This document shows, piece after piece, positions 1 through 56,982 of a stretch of DNA of 64,000 nucleotides. Both the position numbers and the translations under genes were made by a program. The stretch is from a virus: positions 326,762 to 390,761 of IMG/VR virus record IMGVR_UViG_3300020429_000529. One strand, written 5' to 3'. Position 1 is the stretch's first letter. Each line of letters begins with the position of its first letter. The notes below the pieces were generated by a model. That model saw only the letters and a program-made list of their open reading frames with translations. It had not been told where the DNA came from and did no database searches.

Positions 1-330
1 CTCGATAACGACTTCAACACGGCGGAAGCCATCGGAGTTGTCAACAAGTACCTGTTCGAAATCAGCAAAGAAGATTGGGAAGAGATCGAACGGGTCTTTG
101 GCCTTGATGGGATGTTCCCCAAGATTCAAGTCCGAGGCAATGTCGAGTATCGAGAGATGAGCGACGAGATGATCCATGTCGTTGAACCTCTGGTTGTTCT
201 GAGACACAAAGCTCGACAGGACAAGAACTTCGAGGAATCAGACCGGCTTCGGAGCAGAATCGCTGCCGAGGGCTTTGAGATCGAGGATCGATCGTTAGGA
301 CGATATTTGGTCCAGCCAATTCTCGGTTGA
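1..330 (+). CDS. cysS: cysteinyl-tRNA synthetase, C-terminal part (5' partial, continues upstream of window)
   Basis: Frame 1 is open from nt 1 and reads DNDFNTAEAIGV...SDRLRSRIAAEGFEIED, like the CysRS C-terminal DDFNTPEALAVLFDL / ADRLRDxLxxxGVxLED region. Confidence 0.55.
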   Translation, partial: LDNDFNTAEAIGVVNKYLFEISKEDWEEIERVFGLDGMFPKIQVRGNVEYREMSDEMIHVVEPLVVLRHKARQDKNFEESDRLRSRIAAEGFEIEDRSLGRYLVQPILG

Positions 331-3110: not shown

Positions 3111-3194
3111 GGGTCGGTGACTGAGAGGCCGAAAGTATCCGCCTTTTAAGCGGGCAGCGAAAGCTCATCGCGGGTTCGAATCCTGCCCGGCCCA
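3111..3194 (+). tRNA. class II-like tRNA with anticodon UUU; variable arm carries a GCGAAAGC hairpin
   Basis: gggtcgg/ccggccc acceptor, 3-bp D-stem with 11-nt loop, anticodon arm tccgc-CUUUUAA-gcggg, variable cagcgaaagctcatc, T-arm gcgggTTCGAATcctgc. Confidence 0.5.
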
Positions 3195-3201
3195 CTTCAC
3201 T

Positions 3202-3702: not shown

Positions 3703-3832
3703 TTTAGAGAACGAGTCGAAGAGGCTTCGGTTATCACTTTGATTTTGATTCAAAATGCCCAAAGCGCCTGCCTGTAAAGCAGGAAATGCTGGGGGTAAAA
3801 ACACCGATCTTCACCCCATATTCGTTCTTGTT

Positions 3833-3920
3833 TCTGAGGTAGCCGAGTGGTAGCAGGCGTCTGACTGTTAATCAGAAGGGAGTCACATCCCCGTCGTTGG
3901 TTCGAATCCAACCCTCAGAG
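3833..3920 (+). tRNA. Ser-like class II tRNA body with anticodon GUU (Asn codons)
   Basis: tctgagg/cctcaga acceptor, Ser-type D-arm gcc-gagtggtagca-ggc, anticodon arm tctga-CUGUUAA-tcaga, 19-nt variable arm, T-arm gttggTTCGAATccaac. Confidence 0.6.
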
Positions 3921-4042
3921 TTTTTGATCTACGAAAGGTCTTTCGTTCCGAGTATCTCACAAAATACGGAGGGCCTTGTCTTGAATGTCTGAATCCGTGA
4001 CTTGTGCTTCGCATCCGAAGCGCTAACGGAGAGGACAGAGAC

Positions 4043-6787: not shown

Positions 6788-6861
6788 GGGCGGCTGGGAA
6801 AACTGGCTAATCCGCTTGTGTTACATACAAGAGACTCTCGGTTCGAGTCCGAGGCTGCCTA
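6788..6861 (+). tRNA. tRNA-Val(UAC)
   Basis: gggcggc/gctgcct acceptor, anticodon arm cttgt-GUUACAU-acaag, T-arm ctcggTTCGAGTccgag. Confidence 0.75.
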
Positions 6862-6882
6862 CTTTTGAAAGGAGGAGATGCA

Positions 6883-7041
6883 ATGGAACATCTCTATGAT
6901 CGGAACGGTCTCGTCTTCTGGACCGAAGATGAGATTCTCGCCAGAGAGGATATGGCGAGCCGTTTGAGTCGCACGGTCCAATCGAATCTGCGGGAGCAAA
7001 ACCCGGGTTTCGGTTCGCTCGGGTCGAGGCACCTCAGCTAA
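6883..7041 (+). CDS. small hypothetical protein (52 aa)
   Basis: AAGGAGGAG RBS 6 nt upstream of the ATG; below the ORF-track size cutoff. Confidence 0.4.
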   Translation: MEHLYDRNGLVFWTEDEILAREDMASRLSRTVQSNLREQNPGFGSLGSRHLS

Positions 7042-7124
7042 CCCCTCTTGATCGGATTAATCCGAACTACTCGGAAGATGACTACTTCCGAACAGATGAG
7101 TTAGCGCTTCGACCCGAGACCACC

Positions 7125-7550
7125 ATGGGCTCATACGCCTACGCTCGACACCTTCTGACTTCGCAGAAGAAGATCAGACTGCCGCTCGTCATCTGGCAGC
7201 ACGGTAAGAGCTTCCGCAGGGAGCAAGATCAAGTCACCAAGAACATGAGACTCAAGGAGTTCTATCAGCTTGAGTTTCAGATCATGTTTGCGCCGACCAC
7301 GGCAAACGACTACTCGATCAAGCTCATTCCTGCGATTCGGCGTATCATCGAGTTGTTCATCGGTCCCTGCCGAGTCGAGCCGTCCGACAGACTGCCCGAC
7401 TACGCAGAATGGACTCAAGACATTGTGAGAGAAGCGAACGACATGGAAGTCTGTTCAGTTTCTCTCCGTCACGACTTTGATCTTGCAAAGGTCTTGGAGG
7501 TGGCGATCGGAACTGATAGACTTGTTTACAACCACTTTGATTGGCTGTAA
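7125..7550 (+). CDS. class II aminoacyl-tRNA synthetase motif-2 fragment (GlyRS/HisRS-like), 141 aa
   Basis: GKSFRREQDQVTKNMRLKEFYQLEFQIMF resembles class IIa motif 2 (GKxFRNE...REFxQxExE); no in-frame ATG upstream. Confidence 0.45.
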   Translation: MGSYAYARHLLTSQKKIRLPLVIWQHGKSFRREQDQVTKNMRLKEFYQLEFQIMFAPTTANDYSIKLIPAIRRIIELFIGPCRVEPSDRLPDYAEWTQDIVREANDMEVCSVSLRHDFDLAKVLEVAIGTDRLVYNHFDWL

Positions 7551-7932: not shown

Positions 7933-7935
7933 CTT

Positions 7936-8017
7936 GCGGGCGTAGTCTAACGGTAAGGCACTGGCCTTCGAAGCCAGCGGTGAAAATCCATTGGGGGTTC
8001 GAATCCCTCCGCCCGTG
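7936..8017 (+). tRNA. tRNA-Arg(UCG) with an enlarged 15-nt variable region
   Basis: gcgggcg/cgcccgt acceptor, anticodon arm ctggc-CUUCGAA-gccag, T-arm gggggTTCGAATccctc. Confidence 0.65.
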
Positions 8018-8031
8018 TTTAGGAGAATCAG

Positions 8032-8866: not shown

Positions 8867-8957
8867 GCCCCCGTAGCTCAATTGGAAGAGCGGCCGGCTT
8901 CTATCCGGTTTAGACCAACTAAGGTCGAGGTTGAGGGTTCGAGTCCTTCCGGGGGTG
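8867..8957 (+). tRNA. tRNA-Arg(UCU)-like with class I D-arm and a 23-nt variable arm
   Basis: gcccccg/cgggggt acceptor, anticodon arm gccgg-CUUCUAU-ccggt, variable hairpin gacc...ggtc, T-arm gagggTTCGAGTccttc. Confidence 0.55.
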
Positions 8958-8976
8958 CTTTGAAAGGAGAGTCGCT

Positions 8977-11434: not shown

Positions 11435-11518
11435 GAGGGTGAAGTCTATTCGGCATGACGCCTGCCTTCCAAGCAGGAGAGCGAAAGCTCATTGCGGGTT
11501 CGAATCCCGTCACCCTCT
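11435..11518 (+). tRNA. class II-like tRNA with anticodon UCC; variable arm carries a GCGAAAGC hairpin
   Basis: gagggtg/caccctc acceptor, 3-bp D-stem, anticodon arm cctgc-CUUCCAA-gcagg, variable agagcgaaagctcatt, T-arm gcgggTTCGAATcccgt. Confidence 0.55.
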
Positions 11519-11543
11519 TTAGACAAACCAGAAGACTTCGGTC

Positions 11544-15053: not shown

Positions 15054-15389
15054 ATGGAGCCTCATGTATTTGAAGCCGAGAAGCATCTTCGCAGACACGG
15101 CCTTAGCTACAGTCAGAACCTCTATGGCTATTCAGAGCGGTCGAACGCTTACCTCAATCTGTTGACGGCTCCGAGCCTGCAAGCCTCCAACTACAGGTCC
15201 AAGTTTGGGTACTACGATCGTTTGATCGTTACTCAGGGGACGATCGAGTTCGAGGACGGGAAGATCAAGAACGAAGTCGATTCGCTGAACTGCCGTGAAT
15301 CACTGAGCGCGCATCCACTGAACGCCGACTCAGTGAGAGACATAGCGGCAGTAGCCGAGGGGTCAGAGGTAGATCCCAAGGGCGGTTGA
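15054..15389 (+). CDS. hypothetical protein
   Basis: 111-aa ORF, weak RBS. Confidence 0.4.
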   Translation: MEPHVFEAEKHLRRHGLSYSQNLYGYSERSNAYLNLLTAPSLQASNYRSKFGYYDRLIVTQGTIEFEDGKIKNEVDSLNCRESLSAHPLNADSVRDIAAVAEGSEVDPKGG

Positions 15390-15683
15390 GGGGCGTCTCA
15401 TTCCTCTCAAACTTGTTCTCTCGCCATCATCTCTGTTGACCATCGTGTACGGCAGAGTTACTTGAAGGGTTGAGGCGTGCGTCATCTTTAGATGACGGGT
15501 GAGAGATTCTTTCACGCTGGTAGATAGGAACCTCTGCGCGTAGTCAATGCCAAAGCGCAAAGCTTCACAACCCAACTGATAAGCGACGGGCGTAAGACCG
15601 TCGCAAATGCCGAGCGAAGCGAGGCATGACAGGGCGCGCAGAAGCGCACTGAAGCGCGCAGGTGCGGGCCAAGAGCCAAACAT
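15363..15683 (-). CDS. hypothetical protein (low confidence)
   Basis: Minus ORF trimmed to an internal Met to avoid overlapping tRNA-Met; Ala/Leu/Arg-rich, possibly a GC-frame artefact. Confidence 0.25.
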   Translation of the reverse strand: MFGSWPAPARFSALLRALSCLASLGICDGLTPVAYQLGCEALRFGIDYAQRFLSTSVKESLTRHLKMTHASTLQVTLPYTMVNRDDGERTSLRGMRRPSTALGIYL

Positions 15684-15724
15684 GAAGTGGTTTGCAAAGT
15701 CTTCGAAGAGAAGTGGAAAACGAT

Positions 15725-15796
15725 TGCCGATATGGTGTAACAGGTAGCACAGCGCTCTCATAAGGCGTTAGTCCCAGTTCAAATCTGGGTATCGGT
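15725..15796 (+). tRNA. tRNA-Met(CAU) (initiator, elongator or Ile2-type not resolved)
   Basis: gccgata/tatcggt acceptor, anticodon arm gcgct-CUCAUAA-ggcgt, T-arm cccagTTCAAATctggg. Confidence 0.8.
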
Positions 15797-15798
15797 AT

Positions 15799-15873
15799 TG
15801 TGGCTGAAACCGAAGTGGCCGAGGTACTTGCCTGTGAAGCAAGTTATTAGCGGGTTCGAGTCCCGTCAGTCAC
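15799..15873 (+). tRNA. tRNA-His(GUG)-like (no encoded G-1; -1 is T)
   Basis: gtggctg/cagtcac acceptor, 3-bp D-stem with 11-nt loop, anticodon arm cttgc-CUGUGAA-gcaag. Confidence 0.65.
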
Positions 15874-15878
15874 CCTTT

Positions 15879-15950
15879 TAGGGCGGTAGTGTAATTGGCA
15901 ACACTACAGATTTTGATTCTGTCATTCTGGGTTCGAGTCCCGGTCGCCCT
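15879..15950 (+). tRNA. tRNA-Gln(UUG), second copy
   Basis: agggcgg/tcgccct acceptor, anticodon arm acaga-UUUUGAU-tctgt, T-arm ctgggTTCGAGTcccgg. Confidence 0.7.
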
Positions 15951-16230
15951 GTTAAAACCAAGAGACCCTGCTGCTCGTCAGCAACAGGGTCTTCAAACGG
16001 CGGGATGAACTCTACGGACCTTGGACACTATTAACCAGGCTGGTCGCCCCAAGGTCATGTTTCTCCTGCTTACGCAGGCAATCCCTTGGTTTGACGAAGG
16101 CTGCTTTCAAGCCTTCATGATCACTGCCTTCGGCCTTCACCGACTCCGTTGAGCAGCTTGGTCTGCTCTACCGTCCTGCTCCTTGGTACGGACGGCGCAC
16201 GTGGATTGTAGCAGATTTTGTTTCACCTGT

Positions 16231-16301
16231 TGGGGGTGTGATGTAATGGAAGCATCTGAGGCGTTGAACCTCGGCGCGGGAGTTCGATTCTCTCCGCCCC
16301 T
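16231..16301 (+). tRNA. tRNA, anticodon uncertain (loop CGUUGAA with G33; UUG if canonical)
   Basis: gggggtg/cgcccct acceptor, atgt/gcat D-stem, T-arm gggagTTCGATTctctc. Confidence 0.5.
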
Positions 16302-16324
16302 ATTTCTGACGAAGGAGACCCGAG

Positions 16325-17068
16325 ATGATAGACTTTGAACGAGGCGCAAAAGCCACAGGTACAAAGTTCTACTTTCTGACAGGCAACGATGCCCTCAGAG
16401 AGTTGCAACTCTGTATGAAGATGATCGAGTTTCATGCCGAACGAGGATACGAGCCGGTCATTCCGCCGTATCTCGTCAACAAGAAGACATGCGAGATGGC
16501 TGGTATCCTTCCTCGCTTCGAGGGAGACTTCTACGAGACGCAGGACGGGTTCGTTCTGATTCCGACCGCAGAAACGCCCCTCGTCGGTTTTCGCGCCAAC
16601 GAGATCATCCCCGAAGAAGAACTCCCGCTCAAGTATGTCGCCTTCTCGCCCTGTTTCCGCAGAGAGGCTGGCGCAGCGGGGAAGAAGGACAAGGGCCTCA
16701 AGAGGGTCCACCAGTTCCACAAGATCGAACTGTTCGTCATCTGCAAGCCCGAAGACTCGGAGCGGCTCCATGAGGAGATGACGGCTCAGGTCGAAGAGCT
16801 TCTTGATGAACTGGGCGTCGAGCATCGAAGGATCGAGCTTGACGAGAACGATCGTCCCCCAACGTCGGCCAAGACGTATGACATCGAGGTTCGAGCAGGA
16901 GAAGAATGGCTTGAAGTCTCTTCGATCTCGAACACGCTGGATCGGCAGGCAAAGCCCGCTCAGATCCGTTATCGGCCACGACCGCAGGCGAAACCCGTCA
17001 AGTGTCATATCTTGAACGGTTCGGGTGTCGCGCTGCCTCGGCTGACTCTTGCGATGTTGGGTGGATGA
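16325..17068 (+). CDS. seryl-tRNA synthetase catalytic core (class II), lacking the N-terminal tRNA-binding arm
   Basis: GAAGGAGAC RBS; GTKFYFLTG...GYEPVIPPYLV, FSPCFRREAGAAGKKDKGLKRVHQFHKIELF (motif 2) and the GSG motif region; the ORF starts about 25 nt after a tRNA. Confidence 0.75.
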   Translation: MIDFERGAKATGTKFYFLTGNDALRELQLCMKMIEFHAERGYEPVIPPYLVNKKTCEMAGILPRFEGDFYETQDGFVLIPTAETPLVGFRANEIIPEEELPLKYVAFSPCFRREAGAAGKKDKGLKRVHQFHKIELFVICKPEDSERLHEEMTAQVEELLDELGVEHRRIELDENDRPPTSAKTYDIEVRAGEEWLEVSSISNTLDRQAKPAQIRYRPRPQAKPVKCHILNGSGVALPRLTLAMLGG

Positions 17069-17098: not shown

Positions 17099-17170
17099 GC
17101 TCCCTAAGCATAGTAGGAGATGCACTCGCCTCGTAAGCGAGAGAAACCAGTTCGAATCTGGTAGGGAGCT
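17099..17170 (+). tRNA. tRNA-Thr(CGU), second copy
   Basis: gctccct/agggagc acceptor, anticodon arm ctcgc-CUCGUAA-gcgag. Confidence 0.8.
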
Positions 17171-17375: not shown

Positions 17376-17712
17376 TTCCACACTCGACTTCGAGATAGCA
17401 AATGTCTGGATCTCTCTTCATGAGGTGGTCGGCGACATTGCTTACGAAGAAAACGCCGATAAGAGAAAGAACCTGTTCGACAAGTATCTTTACCTGGATC
17501 GGCGTCTGCATCTGATGATGTGTGCCCTTAAGGACGGATGGGAAAAGTTCTCGTTCGAGAGGATGCACGAAGAGCGAAAGAACCTTTGCGCCGCAGACTA
17601 CTGGCGGTTCAAGGAGCTTTGGGATTTGCCGATGCCCGAAATCTTCAAGAGACATGAAGAGAAGCGGGTTGCGGAGATAGAGAAGAGAAGGAAGGGCGGC
17701 GAACATTGGTGA
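17362..17712 (+). CDS. hypothetical protein
   Basis: ATG...TGA overlap with the upstream gene; C-terminus overlaps tRNA-Ser by about 23 nt. Confidence 0.4.
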   Translation: MGRIDSTLDFEIANVWISLHEVVGDIAYEENADKRKNLFDKYLYLDRRLHLMMCALKDGWEKFSFERMHEERKNLCAADYWRFKELWDLPMPEIFKRHEEKRVAEIEKRRKGGEHW

Positions 17713-17780
17713 GTCGCATCCGCTTGGAAAGCGGACGGTCCTCGCGAGAGGGCCTGAGGGTTCGATTCCCTTCCCTTCCG
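17690..17780 (+). tRNA. tRNA-Ser(GGA)
   Basis: ggaaggg/cccttcc acceptor, anticodon arm tccgc-UUGGAAA-gcgga, 20-nt variable arm, T-arm gagggTTCGATTccctt. Confidence 0.8.
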
Positions 17781-17796
17781 CTTTGATAGAGATTCC

Positions 17797-18129
17797 ATGC
17801 CCAAGCAAACTTACATAACTCCAAAGTGTTGTAAGGAGGCAGACAACAACGCAGTTGTTCTCTCGGGCAGGGAATGGGAGTCAGACGAAGACGCCGTAAG
17901 CATCAAGCCGAAATGGGTTGTCCCTGTTTTCAAGGGAGAGTATTACGGGTTGATGGAGGTAAGCTTCTGTCCGTTTTGCGGCAAAGACCTGCCTGATGTA
18001 GAACTTGATCCGACAATTGATTCGAGCAAGATCTACAAGTTTGACGATGACTACTGCGGGAACTGCGGCGAGCGAAACAGGACATGCTCTTGTTTGCAAC
18101 CCGAGTTTCGATGGAAACCGATTGGATAG
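17797..18129 (+). CDS. Cys-rich (zinc-binding?) hypothetical protein
   Basis: CPFCG...CGNCG...CSC motifs; the stop codon is the tRNA's U8-A9-G10. Confidence 0.5.
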   Translation: MPKQTYITPKCCKEADNNAVVLSGREWESDEDAVSIKPKWVVPVFKGEYYGLMEVSFCPFCGKDLPDVELDPTIDSSKIYKFDDDYCGNCGERNRTCSCLQPEFRWKPIG

Positions 18130-18217
18130 GAGGCAACTGATGGTTCGTTGCATCTGCCTGCTAAGCAGACGTGCCCTGTAAACCAGGGCACCGAGGGTTC
18201 GAGTCCCTTCCTATCCG
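18124..18217 (+). tRNA. tRNA-Ser(GCU)
   Basis: ggatagg/cctatcc acceptor, anticodon arm tctgc-CUGCUAA-gcaga, long variable arm gtgccctgtaaaccagggcac. Confidence 0.8.
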
Positions 18218-18333
18218 CTTTGATTTACCTGTTGGGCATATCGCTTGGATTCTTGGCGTTAGCTGTCGTGATTTACGCCATCGTTAGCGCCATGTCTGGC
18301 CGATATGCAAGCAGCGTACCAGAGGGAGAAGTC

Positions 18334-18534
18334 ATGTCAGAAGATCAGAACACTCCGAAAGAGTTCGAACTGTACCGAGACAACGATGGAGAGTTCCGTT
18401 GGAGGCTTCGAGCCCGAAACGGTCGAGTCATCGCTTCCTCGGGAGAAGGCTACAAGAACAAGGCTGACGCCGAACATGCGATCGGCCTGGTCAAGAACGC
18501 TTCAGCAGCAACAGTAGTAGAGGATCTGACATGA
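18334..18534 (+). CDS. DUF1508/YegP-like protein
   Basis: GAGGGAGAAG RBS; FELYRDNDGEFRWRLRARNGRVIASSGEGYKNKADAEHAI matches the YegP repeat; an upstream in-frame TM-like segment would require a non-ATG start. Confidence 0.55.
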   Translation: MSEDQNTPKEFELYRDNDGEFRWRLRARNGRVIASSGEGYKNKADAEHAIGLVKNASAATVVEDLT

Positions 18535-18734
18535 ACAACGACATCACAAGAGATGAAAACGGCGAACCTGTTGTATACGAAGGCGACATGGTTTCCAAGC
18601 CTGTCGAGGGATCAAAGGGCCGAGCCTTTACGATGGAAGATGCCATCAAGTATCTCAACAGACCGAGAGGCACTCGTAAGAATGCCATAGAGAACAAGCG
18701 CCGCTACAAGCAGCGCCCTAAGAAGTCTCGATAA
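18531..18734 (+). CDS. hypothetical basic protein
   Basis: ATGA overlap with the upstream stop; 67 aa. Confidence 0.5.
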   Translation: MNNDITRDENGEPVVYEGDMVSKPVEGSKGRAFTMEDAIKYLNRPRGTRKNAIENKRRYKQRPKKSR

Positions 18735-18737
18735 CAT

Positions 18738-18822
18738 TTGGATGGGCCAACATTGGCGTGTGAAGCTGTCTTGAAAACAGTCATGGGTTCATAGCCCTTG
18801 AGGGTTCGACTCCCTCCCCATC
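18738..18822 (+). tRNA. tRNA-Ser(UGA)
   Basis: ggatggg/cccatcc acceptor, anticodon arm gctgt-CUUGAAA-acagt, long variable arm. Confidence 0.8.
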
Positions 18823-18860
18823 CGCTTATATTGAAAACCCGCTCTAATCGGAGGATGCGT

Positions 18861-19250
18861 ATGAAGTCTCTCAAGTATCTCTCGCCAGAAAAACGCGCCA
18901 TCAAGATCAGTAACGGAGCCTTTCGAGGGCTCACAGTTGACCTGGAAGCCTTCCCAAACAGCAGCTTCCAAGACGATCTCCAAGAAGGCAAATGCTCTGA
19001 AGTCTCCTTGGTCTTCCTAAGACCAGACATTCAGAAAGACGACGAGGGATACGTCACGGTCCCGATCGACAGAGAGACGCAGCGAGCCTACAACCGAGCG
19101 GCTCAGACAAGAGCAGATGTCTGCGGAAGATGCAGGCACAAAACAAAGGGCCTGATCGAAGCCTACAAGTTCGATCGCAAGACGGGCGAGTTCGTAGAGA
19201 GTACGAGCGCAACCCCTTACTCCGAGAGACCATTTCTTCTGGTCGCATGA
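18861..19250 (+). CDS. hypothetical protein
   Basis: First ATG with a GGAGGA RBS after the tRNA, within ORF 18798-19250. Confidence 0.5.
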   Translation: MKSLKYLSPEKRAIKISNGAFRGLTVDLEAFPNSSFQDDLQEGKCSEVSLVFLRPDIQKDDEGYVTVPIDRETQRAYNRAAQTRADVCGRCRHKTKGLIEAYKFDRKTGEFVESTSATPYSERPFLLVA

Positions 19251-19579
19251 AGATCTACTGCGACATCGATGGAACGCTCACAGATGAGCCGTTCAAGAAA
19301 TGGGGCAAGCCCAAGCAGGAGCGGATCGATAAGCTGAAGCAGCTTATCCAAGAAGGCCATCAGGTCATTCTTTGGTCGGGCGGAGGAACGAGATATGCCC
19401 GACAGTTTGCCAAGAAGTATGGCATCAGGGCGACGGCTGCTGTTGGTAAGCCAGATGTCATCATTGATGACAACCCCAAGATCCGCCCAACGAAGAGAAC
19501 GACATATCTGTCTCCCGAGCAGTTTGAATCGCAGGACATCGATTCGGGAGACAGATGGATAGATCACATTGGAAGGTAG
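19247..19579 (+). CDS. HAD-superfamily hydrolase-like protein
   Basis: ATGA overlap; MKIYCDIDGTLTD...ILWSGGG...GKPDVIIDDN. Confidence 0.65.
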   Translation: MKIYCDIDGTLTDEPFKKWGKPKQERIDKLKQLIQEGHQVILWSGGGTRYARQFAKKYGIRATAAVGKPDVIIDDNPKIRPTKRTTYLSPEQFESQDIDSGDRWIDHIGR

Positions 19580-19664
19580 GCGACTGCCGGTTCGTCGCAC
19601 CTGTTTCGAAAACAGACGTGCCCTGTAGCCCAGGGCACCGGGGGTTCGACTCCCCCACCTTCCG
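19571..19664 (+). tRNA. tRNA-Ser(CGA)
   Basis: ggaaggt/accttcc acceptor, anticodon arm ctgt-UUCGAAA-acag, long variable arm gtgccctgtagcccagggcac. Confidence 0.75.
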
Positions 19665-19742
19665 CTTTCTGAGAAGGATTTTATCGAAACCTGAAGTATA
19701 GATTGTCCTCGCAGTTCAAATCCGCTGCGATTTGGAGGATAG

Positions 19743-21860: not shown

Positions 21861-21945
21861 GCCCGTATGGCCGAGTGGCGAAGGCGGCGGATTGCAAATC
21901 CGCTGAGGCTTGACCTCCACGTTGGTTCGAATCCAACTGCGGGCT
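21861..21945 (+). tRNA. Ser-like class II tRNA body with anticodon GCA (Cys codons)
   Basis: gcccgta/tgcgggc acceptor, Ser-type D-arm ggccgagtggcgaaggc, anticodon arm gcgga-UUGCAAA-tccgc, 17-nt variable arm, T-arm gttggTTCGAATccaac. Confidence 0.6.
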
Positions 21946-27212: not shown

Positions 27213-27972
27213 TCTGATCTATGGGAACTACAAAGTTCTCTCGCCTGAAAACCAAGTCATGTTCAGGTGCAACAAGAAGCGATACAACTGGTATCTGCAA
27301 AGAGGTCTGGCCGAGGAGATCGGGGACAAGACTATCCGTCTGACGTTCACTCCGAACGGCGGAGGTTACGCCAAGAACTCGTTCTACACGCAGGACCGAG
27401 AGAATCGTTGCGTGATCTGCGGGACGAGAGAATCCCTAACCAGGCACCATGTTGTTCCTCATTGCTATCGCAAGCACTTCCCGGAAGATCTCAAGCGCAA
27501 TAACTTTCATGACATCTTGCCTGTTTGTCTTGATTGCCATGAAGAATACGAGAGCAACTATTCGCTTCAGATGCGCAAGCGTTTGGAGAAGAAGTATGAT
27601 GCGCCGTTGCAGGGCAGGGGCTACACCGAAGCGGATGATGACTATCTGCATGCTATCCGTTTGGCTGGATGCTTGATCGATTATGGAGATCGCATACCAG
27701 AAAAGCGACAAGAAGAGATGAGAGAGATCATCCGAGGCGCTACAGGCAAGGAAGTTGACGAACGTCTTCTGATTGAGTTGGCAAATGACAAAGTGAAGAA
27801 GCTCTCACGAAGCGAGCATTTCTGTTCGCATGGCGAGCTTGTTATGGATCAGGTCGAAGATATTCAATCATTCGTGGAGGAATGGCGGCTCGATTTTCTG
27901 GAGAATATGGAGCCGAAGTACCTTCCGAAAGGCTGGAAGGTCGATATGCCTGTAGACCATCACCTTGTATGA
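27196..27972 (+). CDS. HNH endonuclease domain protein
   Basis: CVICGTRESLTRHHVVPHCYRKHF...CLDCHEEYE is an HNH/zinc-finger nuclease signature. Confidence 0.6.
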   Translation: MTRATDLIYGNYKVLSPENQVMFRCNKKRYNWYLQRGLAEEIGDKTIRLTFTPNGGGYAKNSFYTQDRENRCVICGTRESLTRHHVVPHCYRKHFPEDLKRNNFHDILPVCLDCHEEYESNYSLQMRKRLEKKYDAPLQGRGYTEADDDYLHAIRLAGCLIDYGDRIPEKRQEEMREIIRGATGKEVDERLLIELANDKVKKLSRSEHFCSHGELVMDQVEDIQSFVEEWRLDFLENMEPKYLPKGWKVDMPVDHHLV

Positions 27973-29468
27973 CGAACATCGACTACAAAGATGACGAGCT
28001 ATTCGAAAGCTCTTTCATGTTCTCCAAGATTGGCAAGTGTCTTGTCTCTCTTGAGGGACGTTTTCTCAAGGTAAATCCTGCGCTCTGTTCTATTCTCGGG
28101 TATTCTGAGAAAGAACTGCTTTCGATTACGTTTCAAGAGATCACGCATCCAGACGATCTTGACATAGATGTAAAGCAGGTAAAAAGATGTATAGCAGGAG
28201 AGATATCAACTTATTCTCTTGACAAGAGATACATCAAGAAGAATGGCAAGGTCGTTTGGGCTGAGTTGAATGTTGCAATCACGAAGAGTCCGTCACGGGA
28301 TGACTTCTTTATCGTTGAAGTTGTCAACATTCAAGACAGAAAGACTCAAGAGAAGCTGCTTCTCAAGCATGAGGCATCTCTAAGAGACTACAGAGATAGG
28401 TTGGAGATTGCGCTTGATGCAAGTCAGATAGGTATTTGGCGATGGTATCCCGAAGAGGACAAGCTCGAATGGGATGACCGTATGTTTGAGATCTTTGGAG
28501 TTGAACGAAATGAGTTCACTGGTAAAGTTAATGATTGGCGTCTGACTGTTATCGAAGAAGACAGAGCCAAAGCGTTTTCGTATGTATTGGAAAGCGTACA
28601 GAAGGGTTTGCCATTCGAGACCGAGTTTCGTATCTATCGCAAAGGCGAGGTTCGCTATATCGCTGCCTATGGCCTTCATGACATAGACAGCACGGGCGAA
28701 GTAATCAGCATGATCGGCGCAAACTACGATATTACTGATCTGCGAATCGCTGAACAAAACCTGATACGATCAAACGTAGAACTTGAGAAGTTTGCGTATG
28801 CTGCCTCTCATGATCTCAAAGAACCGCTTCGGACAATCGGCGGTTTTGCTACGTTGTTGAACAGCAATCATAGGGAGAAGCTTGATGAGCAAGGACAGAA
28901 GTTCCTTGACTTCATTCTGCAAGGCTGTCAGAAGATGCAGTCTCTCATTGATAGTCTGTTGAACTACTCGAAGGTTGATAGGAGGCTTACTGAAGGTTTC
29001 CAAGAAGTCGATATGAGGGCAAAAGCAAAGAAGGCTTGCGAGTACCTGATTGCAAAGATTAGCGAGGTTGATGCAGATGTTGTTTGGGAGGAAGATCTAC
29101 CTGTTGTTTGGGCTCATCCCGATCTCATGCTACAAGTTGTTTTGAACCTTGTTCACAACGCTCTCAAGTTCCGTCATCCTGATCGCAAATGCAAGATCAG
29201 CATCAACTGGGAAGATTTGGGGCACTTGTACCGATTCAATATCACAGACAATGGGATCGGCATCGAAGAAGAGTATCAGGAGCAGATTTTCAGCCTGTTC
29301 CAAAGGCTTCATGACAGGTCTATGGAGGGATCAGGTATGGGGCTTGCTCTTTGCAAGAAGATCATAGGAAGCTTCGGCGGTCAGATATGGGTCGAATCCG
29401 AATACGGGAAGGGTTCGAAGTTTAGCTTCACGATTCCAAAGGGGAGGGGAGAAAATGAGGGTAGCTGA
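27969..29468 (+). CDS. PAS-domain sensor histidine kinase
   Basis: ATGA overlap; PAS repeats, H-box HDLKEPLRTIGGFATLL, HATPase_c region with GSGMGLALCKKI. Confidence 0.8.
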   Translation: MTNIDYKDDELFESSFMFSKIGKCLVSLEGRFLKVNPALCSILGYSEKELLSITFQEITHPDDLDIDVKQVKRCIAGEISTYSLDKRYIKKNGKVVWAELNVAITKSPSRDDFFIVEVVNIQDRKTQEKLLLKHEASLRDYRDRLEIALDASQIGIWRWYPEEDKLEWDDRMFEIFGVERNEFTGKVNDWRLTVIEEDRAKAFSYVLESVQKGLPFETEFRIYRKGEVRYIAAYGLHDIDSTGEVISMIGANYDITDLRIAEQNLIRSNVELEKFAYAASHDLKEPLRTIGGFATLLNSNHREKLDEQGQKFLDFILQGCQKMQSLIDSLLNYSKVDRRLTEGFQEVDMRAKAKKACEYLIAKISEVDADVVWEEDLPVVWAHPDLMLQVVLNLVHNALKFRHPDRKCKISINWEDLGHLYRFNITDNGIGIEEEYQEQIFSLFQRLHDRSMEGSGMGLALCKKIIGSFGGQIWVESEYGKGSKFSFTIPKGRGENEGS

Positions 29469-30796: not shown

Positions 30797-33544
30797 ATGC
30801 AAGGTCACGATGACAGCGGAAGGGGCGGAACTCGCGGGGATCTACTGATCCCTCCGGGCTCGTATGCCTATTTCCAGTCAACGCAGAACGGTTCGATTTC
30901 GACGAAAGTCGGACCAACCAATGTCCCCTCGTCGGGTAACGAAAACCCGATCAAGTTCGATCCTCAATCGAGGAGATTCACTTCCTGTACGCCAGACCAG
31001 GCGATGCAGACAACAATTCGCGCAGGCGAGAATGATTACATCATCCTCGAAAATCCCTGTCTTCAGGGCGGCGAACTCGTCTTCCCCGGCACCAACAAAG
31101 ACAAGCTGCCCGAAAACGGCTTGGAGATGGGACGGCGAGTTGTTGTTCATGGACCTGTCTCTTTCGCGCTGTGGCCGGGCCAAGTCGCAACGGTTGTCGA
31201 GGGCCACGCTCTTCGGACCAACGAATACCTCGAACTGCGGGTCTACGACGCCGAAGCTGCGAAGAAGAACTGGTCCGAGGCCTCGGTAGTCGCTGCCTCG
31301 GCAACGACCGATACGGGAGGACAGGGCGGAGGACAGGGCGGTTCAGGCGGGGAGGATGACCAAAACGCTGGCTCTGCGGACGCTACTTCTGCTGACAAGG
31401 CTGGCGCTGCGGTGGTAAGCGGAGAAGTTCCTGACCTTAGAGTCGGTCAGCGGCTCATCATCAAGGGCACGGATGTCAGCTTCTACATGCCTCCGAGCGG
31501 TATCCAGGTTGTTTCCAGCGATGGAGACCGAACCTATGTTCGCAGCGCTGTCTCTCTCGAACTGCTCGAATACACGATCCTTGTTGATGAGTCGGGCGAC
31601 AAGCGATTCGTCCAAGGCCCTGCCGTTGTCTTCCCCGAGCCCACGGAGACTTTCTTCACGAAGAACGACACTCGGAAGTTCCGAGCGATCGAGCTTCAGG
31701 AGCAGGCTGGTCTTCATCTGAAGGCGCTCAAGGATTTCACCGACGAGGGAGGCAAGCAGCGCAAGGCTGGCGATGAATACTTCGTCACGGGCAAGGAACG
31801 ACCCATCTACTACCCGAGAGAAGAGGAAGCGATCGTTCCTTACGCCGAGGGCGAGCGAGTCCACTATGCCGTTGCGGTTCCCAAGGGAGAGGGCCGCTAT
31901 GTCATGGAGAAGGACTCGGGCGAGATCGATACTCGTACCGGACCCGAGATGCTTCTCTGCGACCCGACCGATGAAGTCATCGTTCGCAGGATCCTGACCG
32001 ATCGACAGTGCGAAGATTGGTATCCCGGCAACGATGCCGCTCGACGCTATAACGCCAGTCTGCGATCGATTCAGGAAGCTGCTGGTTCTGCTCGGAGCGA
32101 TGTTGTTTCCGATTCGGTCACTCGGAGAGCGGCAACTAAGGGCGTCAGTTCGTTGAGGTCTATCGCTCGTCGGGGCGAGGGCCTTGAGTCGCTGGCGTAT
32201 GCCGCTGCGGGCGAAGAATCCTTTGGGGCTGCGGAAGAGGCGGGTTCTGCCGTTCTCGAAGAGTTCGAGCGTAGGGGGAACTTCACTCAGCCCAAGAGTA
32301 TTACGCTCGACACCAAGTTCGAGGGCGTGCCGACGATCGAGCTTTGGACCGGCTACGCCGTTATGGTCGTCAACAAGAGCGGCGACCGTCGCATCGAGGT
32401 TGGTCCGACCACTCTTCTTCTCGACTACGACGAATCGTTGGAGATCATGGAGCTTTCGACCGGCAAGCCCAAGTCTACCGACACTCTGCTGCGAACCGTT
32501 TACCTCCGAGTTCAGAACAACAAGGTCTCGGATGTCATCGAAGTCGAGACAAGCGATCATGTTCGAGTCAAGGTCAAGGTTTCGTTCCGAGTCAACTTCG
32601 CTGAGAGCAACCCGAACAACGCTGAAGACAAGACTGACTACAAGACCCGTTGGTTCGCTACCGAGAACTATGTCAAGCTGCTCTGCGACCATGTTCGTTC
32701 TGTTCTCAAGGGCGAGGTCAAGAAGCACTCGATCTCGGAGTTCTACGCCACGGCGACGGCGACGATTCGAGATATCCTTCTCGGCAAGAGAGCGGAAGGA
32801 ACGGGTCGTCCTGGTATGTTCTTCGACGAGAACGGCATGCACGTCGTTGATGTCGAAGTTCTCGCCACCGACATCGAAGATCGAGAGATCAGCGCTTTAC
32901 TGATCGGCGCTCAGCGAGAAGCTGTCGAATCCAACATCAAGGTCGCTGCTGCCAAGCGTCAGCTTGAAACGACGACCAGCATGGAGGATATGGCTCGTCA
33001 AGAGGCCACGGCTCGCGAAGCGACGAAGAAGCATGCTCATGATCTGCAACTCGCTGAGTTCCAGCGAGATCTCACTCGTTCGCTCGATCGGATCAGGTCC
33101 GAACTCGAAACCCATCAATCGAACAAGGAAGTCATCGAGGCTCGCATCGCCAACGGCGACATCGAGGCTCAGGCGGAGCTTGTTCGCGAGAAGGCTCGAC
33201 ACGACCAGTTGATCGAGCAGAAGAAGGCGGAGCAGGAAATCGAACTCGCCAAGCTCAAGGCCGAGGTCGATGCTGTCAAGGAACGCTTCGGCGCTCTCGA
33301 CGACAGCAACCTGCCCGAGATGTTGGCGGTTCTCAGCAGAGAGGACATGCTGACTCGTATCGCTACGGCCTCGTCTTGGCAGACTGTCATCGGCGGTCAG
33401 AGCCTCGACGACGCTCTCGGCGGTATCTTCGGACCTGACTCGCCTGTCGCCAAGATGCTCGCCACGCTCAAGGCTGGCTCCTCGATCGCTCCTGCGGTCA
33501 TCGGCAGCAGTCGAACGGCGGCAAGGGCTGGCAGCGAGGACTGA
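30797..33544 (+). CDS. major vault protein (MVP) homolog
   Basis: 915 aa. The N-terminal LLIPPGSYAYFQSTQNGSISTKVGPTNVP matches the MVP repeat VIRIPPYHYIHVLDQN...VEVGPKTYI; there are several further MVP-type repeats; an SPFH/shoulder-like segment RTVYLRVQNNKVSDVIEVETSDHVRVKVKVSFRVNF; and a long C-terminal coiled coil like the cap helix. Confidence 0.8.
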   Translation: MQGHDDSGRGGTRGDLLIPPGSYAYFQSTQNGSISTKVGPTNVPSSGNENPIKFDPQSRRFTSCTPDQAMQTTIRAGENDYIILENPCLQGGELVFPGTNKDKLPENGLEMGRRVVVHGPVSFALWPGQVATVVEGHALRTNEYLELRVYDAEAAKKNWSEASVVAASATTDTGGQGGGQGGSGGEDDQNAGSADATSADKAGAAVVSGEVPDLRVGQRLIIKGTDVSFYMPPSGIQVVSSDGDRTYVRSAVSLELLEYTILVDESGDKRFVQGPAVVFPEPTETFFTKNDTRKFRAIELQEQAGLHLKALKDFTDEGGKQRKAGDEYFVTGKERPIYYPREEEAIVPYAEGERVHYAVAVPKGEGRYVMEKDSGEIDTRTGPEMLLCDPTDEVIVRRILTDRQCEDWYPGNDAARRYNASLRSIQEAAGSARSDVVSDSVTRRAATKGVSSLRSIARRGEGLESLAYAAAGEESFGAAEEAGSAVLEEFERRGNFTQPKSITLDTKFEGVPTIELWTGYAVMVVNKSGDRRIEVGPTTLLLDYDESLEIMELSTGKPKSTDTLLRTVYLRVQNNKVSDVIEVETSDHVRVKVKVSFRVNFAESNPNNAEDKTDYKTRWFATENYVKLLCDHVRSVLKGEVKKHSISEFYATATATIRDILLGKRAEGTGRPGMFFDENGMHVVDVEVLATDIEDREISALLIGAQREAVESNIKVAAAKRQLETTTSMEDMARQEATAREATKKHAHDLQLAEFQRDLTRSLDRIRSELETHQSNKEVIEARIANGDIEAQAELVREKARHDQLIEQKKAEQEIELAKLKAEVDAVKERFGALDDSNLPEMLAVLSREDMLTRIATASSWQTVIGGQSLDDALGGIFGPDSPVAKMLATLKAGSSIAPAVIGSSRTAARAGSED

Positions 33545-34767: not shown

Positions 34768-35118
34768 GGGGGTGATATGGAATCGACCGAATGATGTAGG
34801 TTGATGATCGCGAGTCGGGGATGCATGCTCAGGCCCCGTTATCAAGGTATGCACAAATTAGTTGCCAACAGCAACACCCTCCGCATGGCTGCTTAATCAG
34901 CCTGCTCGCAACCCGAAGACACCGATATTCGGGAAGCGAAAGACCATCGGGTTAGGCATCGTCTTCAACGCCTGAGGATTCGATGACCGAAACTAAAAGG
35001 GCTGCTCCGAAGGTCATGCTGTCGCTGGCAGGACTGAGGCTAAGATAAATCAGCGAATACACTCGTAGAGGTCTCTGCTGACCCATTCGACACCGGGGTT
35101 CGAGTCCCCGCACCTCCA
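34768..35118 (+). ncRNA. ssrA: tmRNA (ssrA), tag reading frame ANSNTLRMAA*
   Basis: The 5' end GGGGGUGAUAUGGAAUCGACCG resembles the tmRNA consensus GGGGCUGAUUCUGGAUUCGACGGG. The 3' end ccgggguucgaguccccgcaccucca pairs with the 5' acceptor with G3:U70. The internal ORF gcc aac agc aac acc ctc cgc atg gct gct taa gives the tag. Confidence 0.8.
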
Positions 35119-35126
35119 CTTCAGAA

Positions 35127-52535: not shown

Positions 52536-52826
52536 ATGAGGGAAACGATTGTTGTCAGCGGCGAACCTGATGCAGAGCAGAAGCGCTGTTACGATTGTTT
52601 CTACATGCGAGGGGCCTGTTCTTGGTGGTGCAAAAACGAAGAAGCCATCAAGTTCAGAGGAACCAGAATCCCTGGAGTGAGGGAATGCAAGTTCTGGAAA
52701 CCGGCTCGAAAAGTGTCTGATCTCAGCATGGGCGAACGGTTAGCCTTCCATCTTGACGTACTTGGGCTTGGTTTTGTGCCACTGACGATCGAAGCGTCGG
52801 AGCAAACAGAGACAACGCCTCAATAG
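52536..52826 (+). CDS. Cys-rich hypothetical protein
   Basis: 96 aa with CYDCFYMRGACSWWC; its TAG stop is the U8-A9-G10 of the suppressor tRNA. Confidence 0.4.
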   Translation: MRETIVVSGEPDAEQKRCYDCFYMRGACSWWCKNEEAIKFRGTRIPGVRECKFWKPARKVSDLSMGERLAFHLDVLGLGFVPLTIEASEQTETTPQ

Positions 52827-52888
52827 CTCAATTGGCAGAGCAGCGGGCTCTAACCCCGCGGTTGGGGGTTCAAGTCCCCCTTGAGGCA
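52817..52888 (+). tRNA. amber suppressor tRNA (anticodon CUA, reads UAG)
   Basis: gcctcaa/ttgaggc acceptor, D-arm tagctcaattggcagagca (same as tRNA-Lys(CUU) at 3359), anticodon arm gcggg-CUCUAAC-cccgc, T-arm gggggTTCAAGTccccc. Confidence 0.8.
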
Positions 52889-56323: not shown

Positions 56324-56916
56324 TGGCGGTCTTGACTGAACAACGGCTCAAGGAGCTTCGTCTGGTTTCTAATCGAGTTGTACGAGCGAAGGACTTTGCT
56401 CGTACAGCCCATCAGGGGCAGACAAGAGATGACGGCGCGGAATACTTCTCTCATCCGTCGAGAGTTGTTGATCGAGTTCGAGGTTACTCGGGCGACGAGA
56501 ACACCATCTGCGCCGCATGGTTGCATGATACGATCGAGGATTGCGAGGGCGTTACTTCGGAGATGCTGCAGGATCTCTTCGGTTCTCAGGTTACGAGCAT
56601 CGTTGAAGAACTGACGCTCCCTGAGATTCCTTCTAAGATCAGTCCTCCTCATCGGTGGCAATACAAGACGGATCTGCTCGTCAAAAAGGCAGGCACGATG
56701 TCTAATGAGGCGAAGCTGGTCAAGATTTGCGACCGCATTGACAACTTGAATTCTGCGATGACGGATTGGAAGCCCCGTCGTCTTGTCCGTTACGCTATTC
56801 AGGGCTGCAAGATGCTGGAAGCTATGCGCCCTCTCGATCCGATGCATCAGCAAGCTGCAAACGACCTGCTCTTTCTGATCGCTCAGATCTTGATCGAAAA
56901 CCAACAGTCCTCGTAG
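56323..56916 (+). CDS. HD-domain phosphohydrolase (RelA/SpoT-type HD)
   Basis: ARTAHQGQTRDDGAEYFSHPSRVV...AAWLHDTIED motifs; its TAG stop is the tRNA's U8-A9-G10. Confidence 0.7.
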   Translation: MAVLTEQRLKELRLVSNRVVRAKDFARTAHQGQTRDDGAEYFSHPSRVVDRVRGYSGDENTICAAWLHDTIEDCEGVTSEMLQDLFGSQVTSIVEELTLPEIPSKISPPHRWQYKTDLLVKKAGTMSNEAKLVKICDRIDNLNSAMTDWKPRRLVRYAIQGCKMLEAMRPLDPMHQQAANDLLFLIAQILIENQQSS

Positions 56917-56982
56917 CTCAGTATGGCCAGAGCCGCCGACTCTAAATCGGTGTGAGCGCGGGTTCGAGTCCCGCCGAGGACG
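56907..56982 (+). tRNA. amber suppressor tRNA (anticodon CUA), second copy with a different body
   Basis: gtcctcg/cgaggac acceptor, D-stem gctc/gagc, anticodon arm gccga-CUCUAAA-tcggt, T-arm gcgggTTCGAGTcccgc. Confidence 0.75.

Follow-up and report, generated by a model that had tools for sequence, protein, structure and literature searches.

This work concerns a 64,000-nucleotide stretch of viral DNA (positions 326,762 to 390,761 of the IMG/VR record IMGVR_UViG_3300020429_000529; hereafter the window) and, within it, an open reading frame (ORF) at 16325–17068 that encodes the catalytic core of a bacterial-type (type-1) seryl-tRNA synthetase (SerRS). The frame runs from an ATG at 16325 to a TGA at 17066–17068, and we refer to its 247-aa product as the mini SerRS. 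An earlier note on this DNA had proposed, as one of two readings, that the product resembles a stripped-down synthetase that carries class II motifs 2 and 3 of SerRS and has no N-terminal arm, and profile searches agree. The NCBIfam serS model TIGR00414 matches with E=6.7e-76 and 255.9 bits over model positions 151–398 of 418; upstream of the ATG, the frame is closed by an in-frame TGA at 16307 and a tRNA gene precedes it. All three class II motifs were found, motif 1 included. The score falls short of the curated equivalog cut-off of the model (301.65) because both ends of the protein are missing. Pfam tRNA-synt_2b matched at E=3e-27, and type-1 SerRS chains in the PDB at E=1e-55 (query residues 1–243 against residues 149–395 of 449); identity to type-1 SerRS across the core is 40–51%. 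Methanogen-type serS models reached just 33–37 bits. A profile of the family described below retrieved type-1 SerRS chains from the PDB at 1e-71 to 1e-32 and, with the serS models, places the protein firmly in type-1 SerRS among the class II families. An AlphaFold2 model of the mini SerRS, built on 62 family members, has a mean pLDDT of 88, with low confidence in the motif-2 loop only. When this model was compared with the PDB by Foldseek, all 50 of the 50 best matches were type-1 SerRS, at query-normalised TM scores of about 0.87–0.94 (0.90–0.94 for ranks 1–26).

The truncation was gauged against 105 full-length SerRS representatives, relative to which the mini SerRS is shorter by a median of 147 N-terminal and 27 C-terminal residues. 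The N-terminal loss takes away the coiled-coil arm together with the arm base of about 50 residues (E. coli 98–148). At the other end the protein terminates 8 residues past the motif-3 arginine, so that the ENYQ tail is missing and with it E404, which does not vary among 106 cellular sequences; the absent arm had been noticed before, and the additional loss of the C-terminal tail of about 27 residues had been missed. An upstream exon or another frame supplying the N-domain was sought with a hidden Markov model (HMM) of the 105 SerRS N-domains in six frames of the window and of 20 related loci, and the best match had E=0.12. An HMM of the C-terminal tail found no match in the same frames. Within the window and these 20 loci, a split SerRS gene is rejected on these two empty searches. 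We also sought a compensating basic RNA-binding surface in the mini SerRS cores and saw none; the net charge of family cores has a median of −4, against −1 in cellular cores. Arm, arm base and C-terminal tail are lost across the whole family.

The family is large and uniform. More than 120 clusters were found in a protein database clustered at 90% identity, 245–260 aa in length and at 60–89% identity, with common ends: the N-terminus reads M-x-DFERGAK and the C-terminus follows soon after LNGSGVALPRL. The few entries that exceed this length owe it to miscalled starts or to unrelated extensions. In a library clustered at 50% identity only about three representatives of the family remain, and the score falls from 273 to 218 bits at the point where full-length cellular SerRS (at most 51% identity) begin, with one apparently chimeric canonical SerRS fragment (245 bits) in between; from this drop it follows that the family is a tight clade. 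Compared with a 98%-identical strain, the mini SerRS gene has 11 synonymous and 1 non-synonymous differences (dN/dS 0.026), and compared with orthologues at 83–89% identity pN is 0.08–0.11, synonymous sites being saturated. The gene is under strong purifying selection. That truncation or the insertion of tRNAs might have left it as a fragment or pseudogene is suggested by the tRNA genes on both sides of it; the ends shared by so many clusters, a dN/dS near 0.03, a strong Shine-Dalgarno site and the occurrence of the identical protein on 18 contigs from several samples speak against such an origin, to which we give practically no credence. The mini SerRS gene is functional and no fragment.

Family members occur on phage-like contigs of 0.3–0.67 Mb. 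Among the matches listed from a set of one genome per GTDB species, none exceeds 49% identity to the mini SerRS and the best is an Ignavibacteria genome; the closest full-length relative that we examined has an ordinary bacterial chromosome setting. The family is absent from INPHARED, where all matches are below 45% identity, and is carried by three IMG/VR contigs. Contigs bearing family members measure 281, 293, 296, 377, 502, 533 (an IMG/VR viral contig), 622 and 673 kb, and their genes are mostly small, without assigned function and on a single strand, accompanied by tRNA arrays, RRF and TnpB. One 498,610-bp ENA contig with the identical protein agrees with the window at 100% identity across the 6.4 kb that were compared. 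No phage hallmark protein was recognised in the window, and its viral assignment rests on context and on the IMG/VR relative. The family belongs to a huge-phage lineage and is apparently virus-specific. In the searchable literature we found no description of arm-less phage SerRS cores; the SerRS lineage, the double truncation and the viral distribution appear to be new here, while truncated synthetase paralogues and an arm-less SerRS subunit are already known in kind.

Conservation was examined by aligning 111 family members jointly with 105 full-length SerRS and E. coli SerS. The positions that are invariant in cellular SerRS within E. coli 149–403 (T237, E239, R268, E270, G280, R283, F287, K289, E291, D342, E344, E355, S358, N389 and R397) are all 98–100% conserved in the family, and the near-invariant H285, Q286, S357, S360, Q366, R373, H386, G390 and S391 are likewise kept at 98–100%. 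The SerRS ligand patterns TxE, FRxE, RxHQF.K.E, D.E, E.SS.S and NGSG..R are all present, and the motif-2 loop has kept its canonical length; G116, G119 and G124 do not vary, and K123 is conserved at 92%. Judged from this alignment, every invariant residue predicted to bind ATP, Mg or serine is kept in the mini SerRS. Changes occur elsewhere. L172, Y323, Y341 and W346, conserved in cellular SerRS, are relaxed in the family; F335 is switched to P, F365 to N, R368 to K, R369 to P, R174 to W and E192 to F, and the cellular segment GDMGFGAC reads xDRSPVSN. We infer that the relaxed positions would once have packed against the deleted N- and C-terminal pieces.

These results bear directly on the suggestion in the earlier note that the protein resembles the SerRS-like amino acid:carrier-protein ligases, which attach an amino acid to a carrier protein and, like the mini SerRS, have no tRNA-binding domain. 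Methanogen-type SerRS is the lineage that gave rise to those ligases; the mini SerRS lies outside it (255.9 bits with bacterial serS against 33–37 bits), and the idea therefore fails on lineage. The serine site is the type-1 set T-A-E / E / N-G-S: T81-A82-E83, E135 and S233, where type-1 SerRS binds serine without zinc, are invariant in the family, and the motif-3 position is Ser rather than Cys. These columns may correspond to the zinc-ligand positions of the ligases. The family profile retrieved no PDB chain named as such a ligase at E≤10, and the Foldseek matches were type-1 SerRS throughout. A carrier protein next to the gene was also sought, and no PP-binding match was found in the ORFs scanned at about 12.6–20.7 kb and 8.0–9.8 kb. 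Such a ligase is very improbable, and we reject it on lineage, active-site type and the missing carrier protein.

The features of the locus are collected below. Between the end of the preceding tRNA gene at 16302 and the ATG lie 22 nt; the tRNA before the ORF had been noted previously, with a gap of about 25 nt, and it is confirmed at 42.1 bits while the distance is not. Downstream, four tRNA-Ser genes follow within 2.6 kb (17690–19665), with canonical GGA... acceptor stems and a G at the position read as the discriminator. Over its full length the window carries 47 ARAGORN tRNA calls and a transfer-messenger RNA (tmRNA), all on the + strand, and its GC skew is positive throughout. A further tRNA at 15800–15874, probably His with anticodon GUG, scores 45 bits with Rfam and is absent from the ARAGORN calls; as this gene and the one at 16232–16302 were both missed, the ARAGORN tally for the genome is an underestimate. 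A scan for promoters and terminators round the mini SerRS gene gave nothing above background.

Features of the window at and around the mini SerRS gene and the GlyRS-like gene
Feature	Position	Strand	Remarks
Probable cysS 3′ end, cut by window edge	1..327	+	Weak match, TIGR00435 positions 354–461, E=1.3e-5
GlyRS-like mini class II core, 5′ part, frame 1	6826..7011	+	First 44 profile positions; ends at G_GGT_TTC 7005–7011
GlyRS-like mini core, 3′ part, frame 3 via putative −1 shift	7011..7550	+	Profile matches; contains ORF 7125–7550
tRNA-Gln(UUG)-like gene, G replacing U at position 33	16232..16302	+	Rfam tRNA 42.1 bits (focused search); missed by ARAGORN
Shine-Dalgarno AAGGAG	16312..16317	+	7 nt before ATG; read from sequence
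Mini seryl-tRNA synthetase gene	16325..17068	+	247 aa; type-1 SerRS catalytic core, motifs 1–3; without N-terminal arm and base, without C-terminal tail
tRNA-Thr(CGU)	17099..17170	+	30 nt past mini SerRS stop; ARAGORN
tRNA-Ser(GGA)	17690..17781	+	Long variable arm, GGA... acceptor stem, G at position read as discriminator; ARAGORN
tRNA-Ser(GCU)	18124..18218	+	ARAGORN
tRNA-Ser(UGA)	18740..18825	+	ARAGORN
tRNA-Ser(CGA)	19571..19665	+	ARAGORN

Recoding does not lengthen the protein. Read-through of the TGA adds 14 codons only, into the start of tRNA-Thr, with no SerRS-like tail, and the window bears no sign of TAG recoding, 22 of its 104 long reading frames ending in TAG. Two genes for amber-reading tRNAs with CUA anticodons, labelled Pyl by ARAGORN, lie at 52817–52888 and 56907–56982; as substrates of the arm-less SerRS they are ruled out by acceptor stems that are not Ser-like.

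Related loci, designated here by L numbers, differ in the tRNA context of the gene. Genes for tRNA-Ser directly flank the mini SerRS in L012 and L013. In L004/L005, the related strain L001 and the window they belong to the tRNA genes closest to it, and they are not its flanking genes in L006, in L018 or in a subclade marked by a cpYpsA gene. When all flanking ORFs of 18 loci were compared with one another, this gene (circularly permuted YpsA, a SLOG family member) was the only conserved neighbour, and it was confined to seven loci of one subclade: L002 (9502–10008), L010, L016, L019, L020, L021 and L023. There it lies directly upstream of the mini SerRS gene and overlaps its start codon (ATGA/TGATG), an arrangement that suggests translational coupling; the four members scanned match the Pfam family at 1e-34 to 1e-42. 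The SLOG family cpYpsA is presumably nucleotide-binding. No conserved small neighbour was found across the 18 loci and no cpYpsA gene in the window, and a conserved neighbour as partner of the mini SerRS was accordingly rejected, the only candidate being restricted to one subclade and missing here. At L002, class I synthetases of IleRS, GluRS and MetRS type, complete with anticodon-binding domains, stand beside the mini SerRS, and the stripped SerRS is therefore not simply the product of genome-size pressure.

L001 is a 502,461-bp ENA contig, 97–98% identical to the window, from which it differs mainly by kilobase-scale indels between tRNA genes. It has about 1.9 kb extra upstream of the SerRS gene (window 15389–16325 against L001 7185–10001), and it does not have a 338-bp zinc-ribbon ORF that lies between two tRNA-Ser genes of the window (17784–18122). 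The tRNA array looks like a hotspot of gene gain and loss.

The mini SerRS is not the only class II core of this kind. ORF 7125–7550 had been taken for a piece holding no more than a motif-2-like block; it proves to be the 3′ three-quarters of a complete 222-aa GlyRS-like core. The best matches of this core are to dimeric GlyRS (E=3.5e-12 in NCBIfam, about 1e-6 in the PDB), and its family counts more than 1000 clusters of 220–230 aa, which some sources label glycyl-tRNA synthetase. Its homologues are intact single ORFs. In the window, the family HMM matches with positions 1–44 in frame 1 (segment 6811–7038) and with positions 41–222 in frame 3 (segment 6933–7547), and a −1 shift at the heptamer 7005–7011, of the X_XXY_YYZ type, would yield ..QNPGFRF.., the sequence that intact homologues such as P0124 have. 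L093, at 92% amino acid identity, shares both heptamer and break; compared with it, dN/dS is 0.036 upstream and 0.043 downstream of the break (dS 0.8–1.1), with both halves under purifying selection. In both relatives the sequence past the heptamer folds, by RNAfold, into a predicted hairpin, a candidate stimulatory structure. The gene probably uses a programmed −1 frameshift and is probably not in decay. Sequencing error as the cause of the break is ruled out by L093 and by 24 contigs on which the downstream ORF and the break are reproduced. L093 has a further, unexplained break, T5 versus T6, nearer the start of its GlyRS-like gene. These phages have yet a third type of mini synthetase core, a 190-aa HisRS-like class II core without an anticodon-binding domain, found at 11541–12113 of L006 at a distance of 0.7 kb from the mini SerRS; a 'histidyl tRNA synthetase' family of 190 positions is already present in PHROGs (phrog_4806). 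As to the start of the window, its assignment to the 3′ end of cysS stands as a probable one.

Six tRNAs for amino acids other than Ser, Leu and Tyr are 84–92 nt long: Lys-UUU, Asn-GUU, Arg-UCG, Arg-UCU, Gly-UCC and Cys-GCA (as a set, 3111–3195, 3832–3921, 7935–8018, 8867–8958, 11435–11518 and 21861–21945). For at least four of them (Asn, Gly, Cys and Arg-UCU) RNAfold gives a 4-bp variable-region hairpin on a normal cloverleaf, and the insert GAGCGAAAGCUC is common to Lys-UUU and Gly-UCC. The Gly-UCC gene of L001, the 98% relative, is without the hairpin and diverges through the D and anticodon arms; long tRNAs of a similar sort, for Asp and Lys, were seen in L004 and L018. Elsewhere, the window encodes a phage tmRNA at 34768–35121 (Rfam, 119 bits; tag peptide ANSNTLRMAA), a 915-aa protein with Major Vault Protein shoulder and repeat domains at 30797–33544 (Pfam MVP_shoulder, E=1.7e-25), which is unusual for a phage-like genome, a WGR and PARP catalytic domain protein at 44620–46278 (E=1e-19), and a PAS/HisKA/HATPase histidine kinase at 27882–29468.

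Among synthetases, SerRS is the classic example of tRNA recognition by an appended arm rather than by the anticodon. Our tentative preference, which we hold with less than even confidence and which draws on the analogy with SerRS2alpha/SLIMP, is that the mini SerRS may be a catalytic subunit that serylates tRNA-Ser with a docking arm supplied in trans. It would dimerise through motif 1, form seryl-adenylate and pass the serine to the 3′ end of tRNA-Ser, for which the four phage genes just downstream might provide substrates, while the tRNA would be positioned by the arm of a partner. Because the mini SerRS has no docking element, that arm would have to come in trans, and because SerRS binds tRNA across the dimer, its most economical source would be a full-length SerRS subunit, either that of the host or an unseen phage paralogue, in a heterodimer with the mini subunit. 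SerRS heterodimers with a single arm are reportedly active. The translation-devoted genomic setting of the gene also supports a charging role. Two published systems provide background: in the SerRS dimer, tRNA-Ser spans both subunits, the arm of one presenting the acceptor end to the other's active site (PMC10817482), and the arm-less DmSerRS2alpha is inactive alone and active with the arm-bearing SLIMP (PMC10570016).

Several observations weigh against charging with an arm in trans. No partner was found, and the 64-kb window and about 20 related loci contain no arm homologue. In the motif-1 region, the family has W and F in place of R174 and E192, two residues that cellular SerRS conserves; should they be part of the dimer interface, the replacements would count against pairing with a host subunit. 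K and P stand where cellular SerRS has R368 and R369 (at least 91% conserved), the core shows no gain of positive charge (median −4 against −1), and adjacency to tRNA-Ser is limited to some lineages. A heterodimer with the host enzyme brings no obvious extra charging capacity. Finally, the parallel GlyRS-like and HisRS-like mini cores of the same phage group, likewise without anticodon-binding domains, hint at a common role that may not involve tRNA.

Such a role is possible, though doubtful, and we consider it nearly as likely as charging with an arm in trans. The mini SerRS would then be a tRNA-independent adenylate-forming enzyme whose Ser-AMP is used elsewhere, for instance towards Ap4A, another dinucleoside polyphosphate or a nucleotide signal, or is passed to a non-tRNA acceptor. 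Formation of Ap4A and other dinucleoside polyphosphates is a side reaction of SerRS and GlyRS cores. All known tRNA-binding appendages are gone, with no arm in cis or nearby, no compensating basic surface and the canonical R368 and R369 lost, and the cores of GlyRS-like (more than 1000 clusters) and HisRS-like (190 aa) type are likewise without RNA-binding domains; the coupling to the cpYpsA SLOG gene in 7 of the 18 loci fits as well. On the other side, the motif-2 loop, through which SerRS contacts the acceptor stem, is canonical in length and conservation, and the gene sits within tRNA arrays, in several lineages beside tRNA-Ser. Moreover, no carrier protein or other acceptor gene adjoins it in a conserved manner, and cpYpsA is missing from the window.

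The intact catalytic site and motif-2 loop, together with phage tRNA-Ser genes whose acceptor stems are canonical, would also suit a stand-alone minimal SerRS, a homodimer charging tRNA-Ser, or tRNAs more loosely, through the acceptor end, with the high local supply of phage tRNA-Ser helping. For an engineered E. coli SerRS without its arm, a crystal structure with a bound seryl-adenylate analogue is available (PDB 9QOF); that the phage protein is even smaller than this engineered deletion counts against charging on its own. Arm-less E. coli SerRS is said to keep serine activation but to charge tRNA very poorly and unspecifically, the deletion reportedly costing orders of magnitude in aminoacylation efficiency and, in addition, specificity. 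Neither the lack of any basic surface gained nor the inactivity of DmSerRS2alpha on its own (PMC10570016) favours unaided charging, which we regard as unlikely.

The retention of motif 1, the dimerisation element of class II cores, raises the further alternative of a regulatory or dominant-negative subunit that pairs with host SerRS and throttles or redirects host serylation, its own catalysis being beside the point. In SerRS the arm of one subunit has to work with the active site of the other, so that an arm-less partner would disable one of the two tRNA sites. A pure binder would have no need of the catalytic residues, however, and all of these are strictly conserved in the family, whereas SLIMP and HisZ have lost theirs; the motif-1 region, moreover, is remodelled. 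We think this quite improbable, and hardly more is to be said for a partly private, re-wired aminoacylation, in which Ser, Gly-like and His-like cores without RNA-binding modules might share a docking factor that reads a tRNA feature such as the variable-region hairpin, which several phage tRNAs (Lys, Gly, Asn, Cys, Arg) would have acquired; this, too, is a long shot. If it were true, the shared docking factor would make a modular synthetase of catalytic core and trans-acting tRNA adaptor, an architecture that, to our knowledge, is not known in cells.

Whichever role applies, a conserved family without arm, base and tail amounts to a natural experiment on what a class II core does alone or when helped in trans. 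Should charging through a host arm be correct, it would be the first viral example of a host synthetase hijacked by heterodimerisation; should the role be independent of tRNA, the family would represent a new phage-encoded enzyme producing an adenylate or a nucleotide signal. On either reading, a compact 247-aa serine-activating module would be at hand for synthetic biology. 'Seryl-tRNA synthetase' annotations in huge phages are not to be tallied as complete synthetases.

The context of the mini SerRS matches the translation gene sets reported for huge phages with genomes above 200 kb, which have large tRNA arrays, tmRNA and up to 15 synthetases (Al-Shayeb et al. 2020, PMC7162821). The words 'seryl' and 'truncated' were not found in the text of that report, and domain-stripped class II cores are apparently not described there. 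Other catalytic cores without a tRNA-recognition module, repurposed or partner-dependent, include HisZ, PoxA/EpmA, AsnA and YadB/GluQRS (PMC9437257); these are cellular and of other synthetase origins, and none is a type-1 SerRS core or phage-specific. The amino acid:carrier-protein ligases of Bradyrhizobium and Agrobacterium are likewise SerRS-related class II cores without a tRNA-binding domain. They derive from zinc-dependent methanogen-type SerRS and are encoded beside carrier-protein genes, neither of which is true of the phage protein.

With type-1 SerRS (serS TIGR00414; PDB 2DQ3, 2DQ0, 6R1N, 6R1M and 1SER) the phage protein has in common the fold (Foldseek TM about 0.9), motifs 1–3, the ATP and serine ligands and the motif-2 loop. 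It differs in having no Seryl_tRNA_N arm, no arm base (E. coli 98–148) and no E404-bearing C-terminal tail, and in being relaxed or switched at L172, Y323, Y341, W346, F335, F365, R368 and R369. PDB 9QOF, the engineered E. coli arm deletion (368 aa), still binds a seryl-adenylate analogue with the arm removed and is among the top Foldseek matches (ranks 9–10, TM 0.93 by query). It keeps residues 98–148 and the C-terminal tail, whereas the phage protein is about 120 residues shorter and represents a natural, conserved family. Closest in function, for charging with an arm in trans, is SerRS2alpha of insect and protostome mitochondria (PMC10570016), a natural arm-less subunit that has kept its active site, as the phage protein has. 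Its origin is unrelated, in animal mitochondria, and its C-terminal tail is retained where that of the phage protein is lost. Its partner is the known paralogue SLIMP, while none was found for the phage protein in the 64-kb window and the flanks of 20 related loci; paired with SLIMP, SerRS2alpha is the closest functional parallel to charging by an arm in trans.

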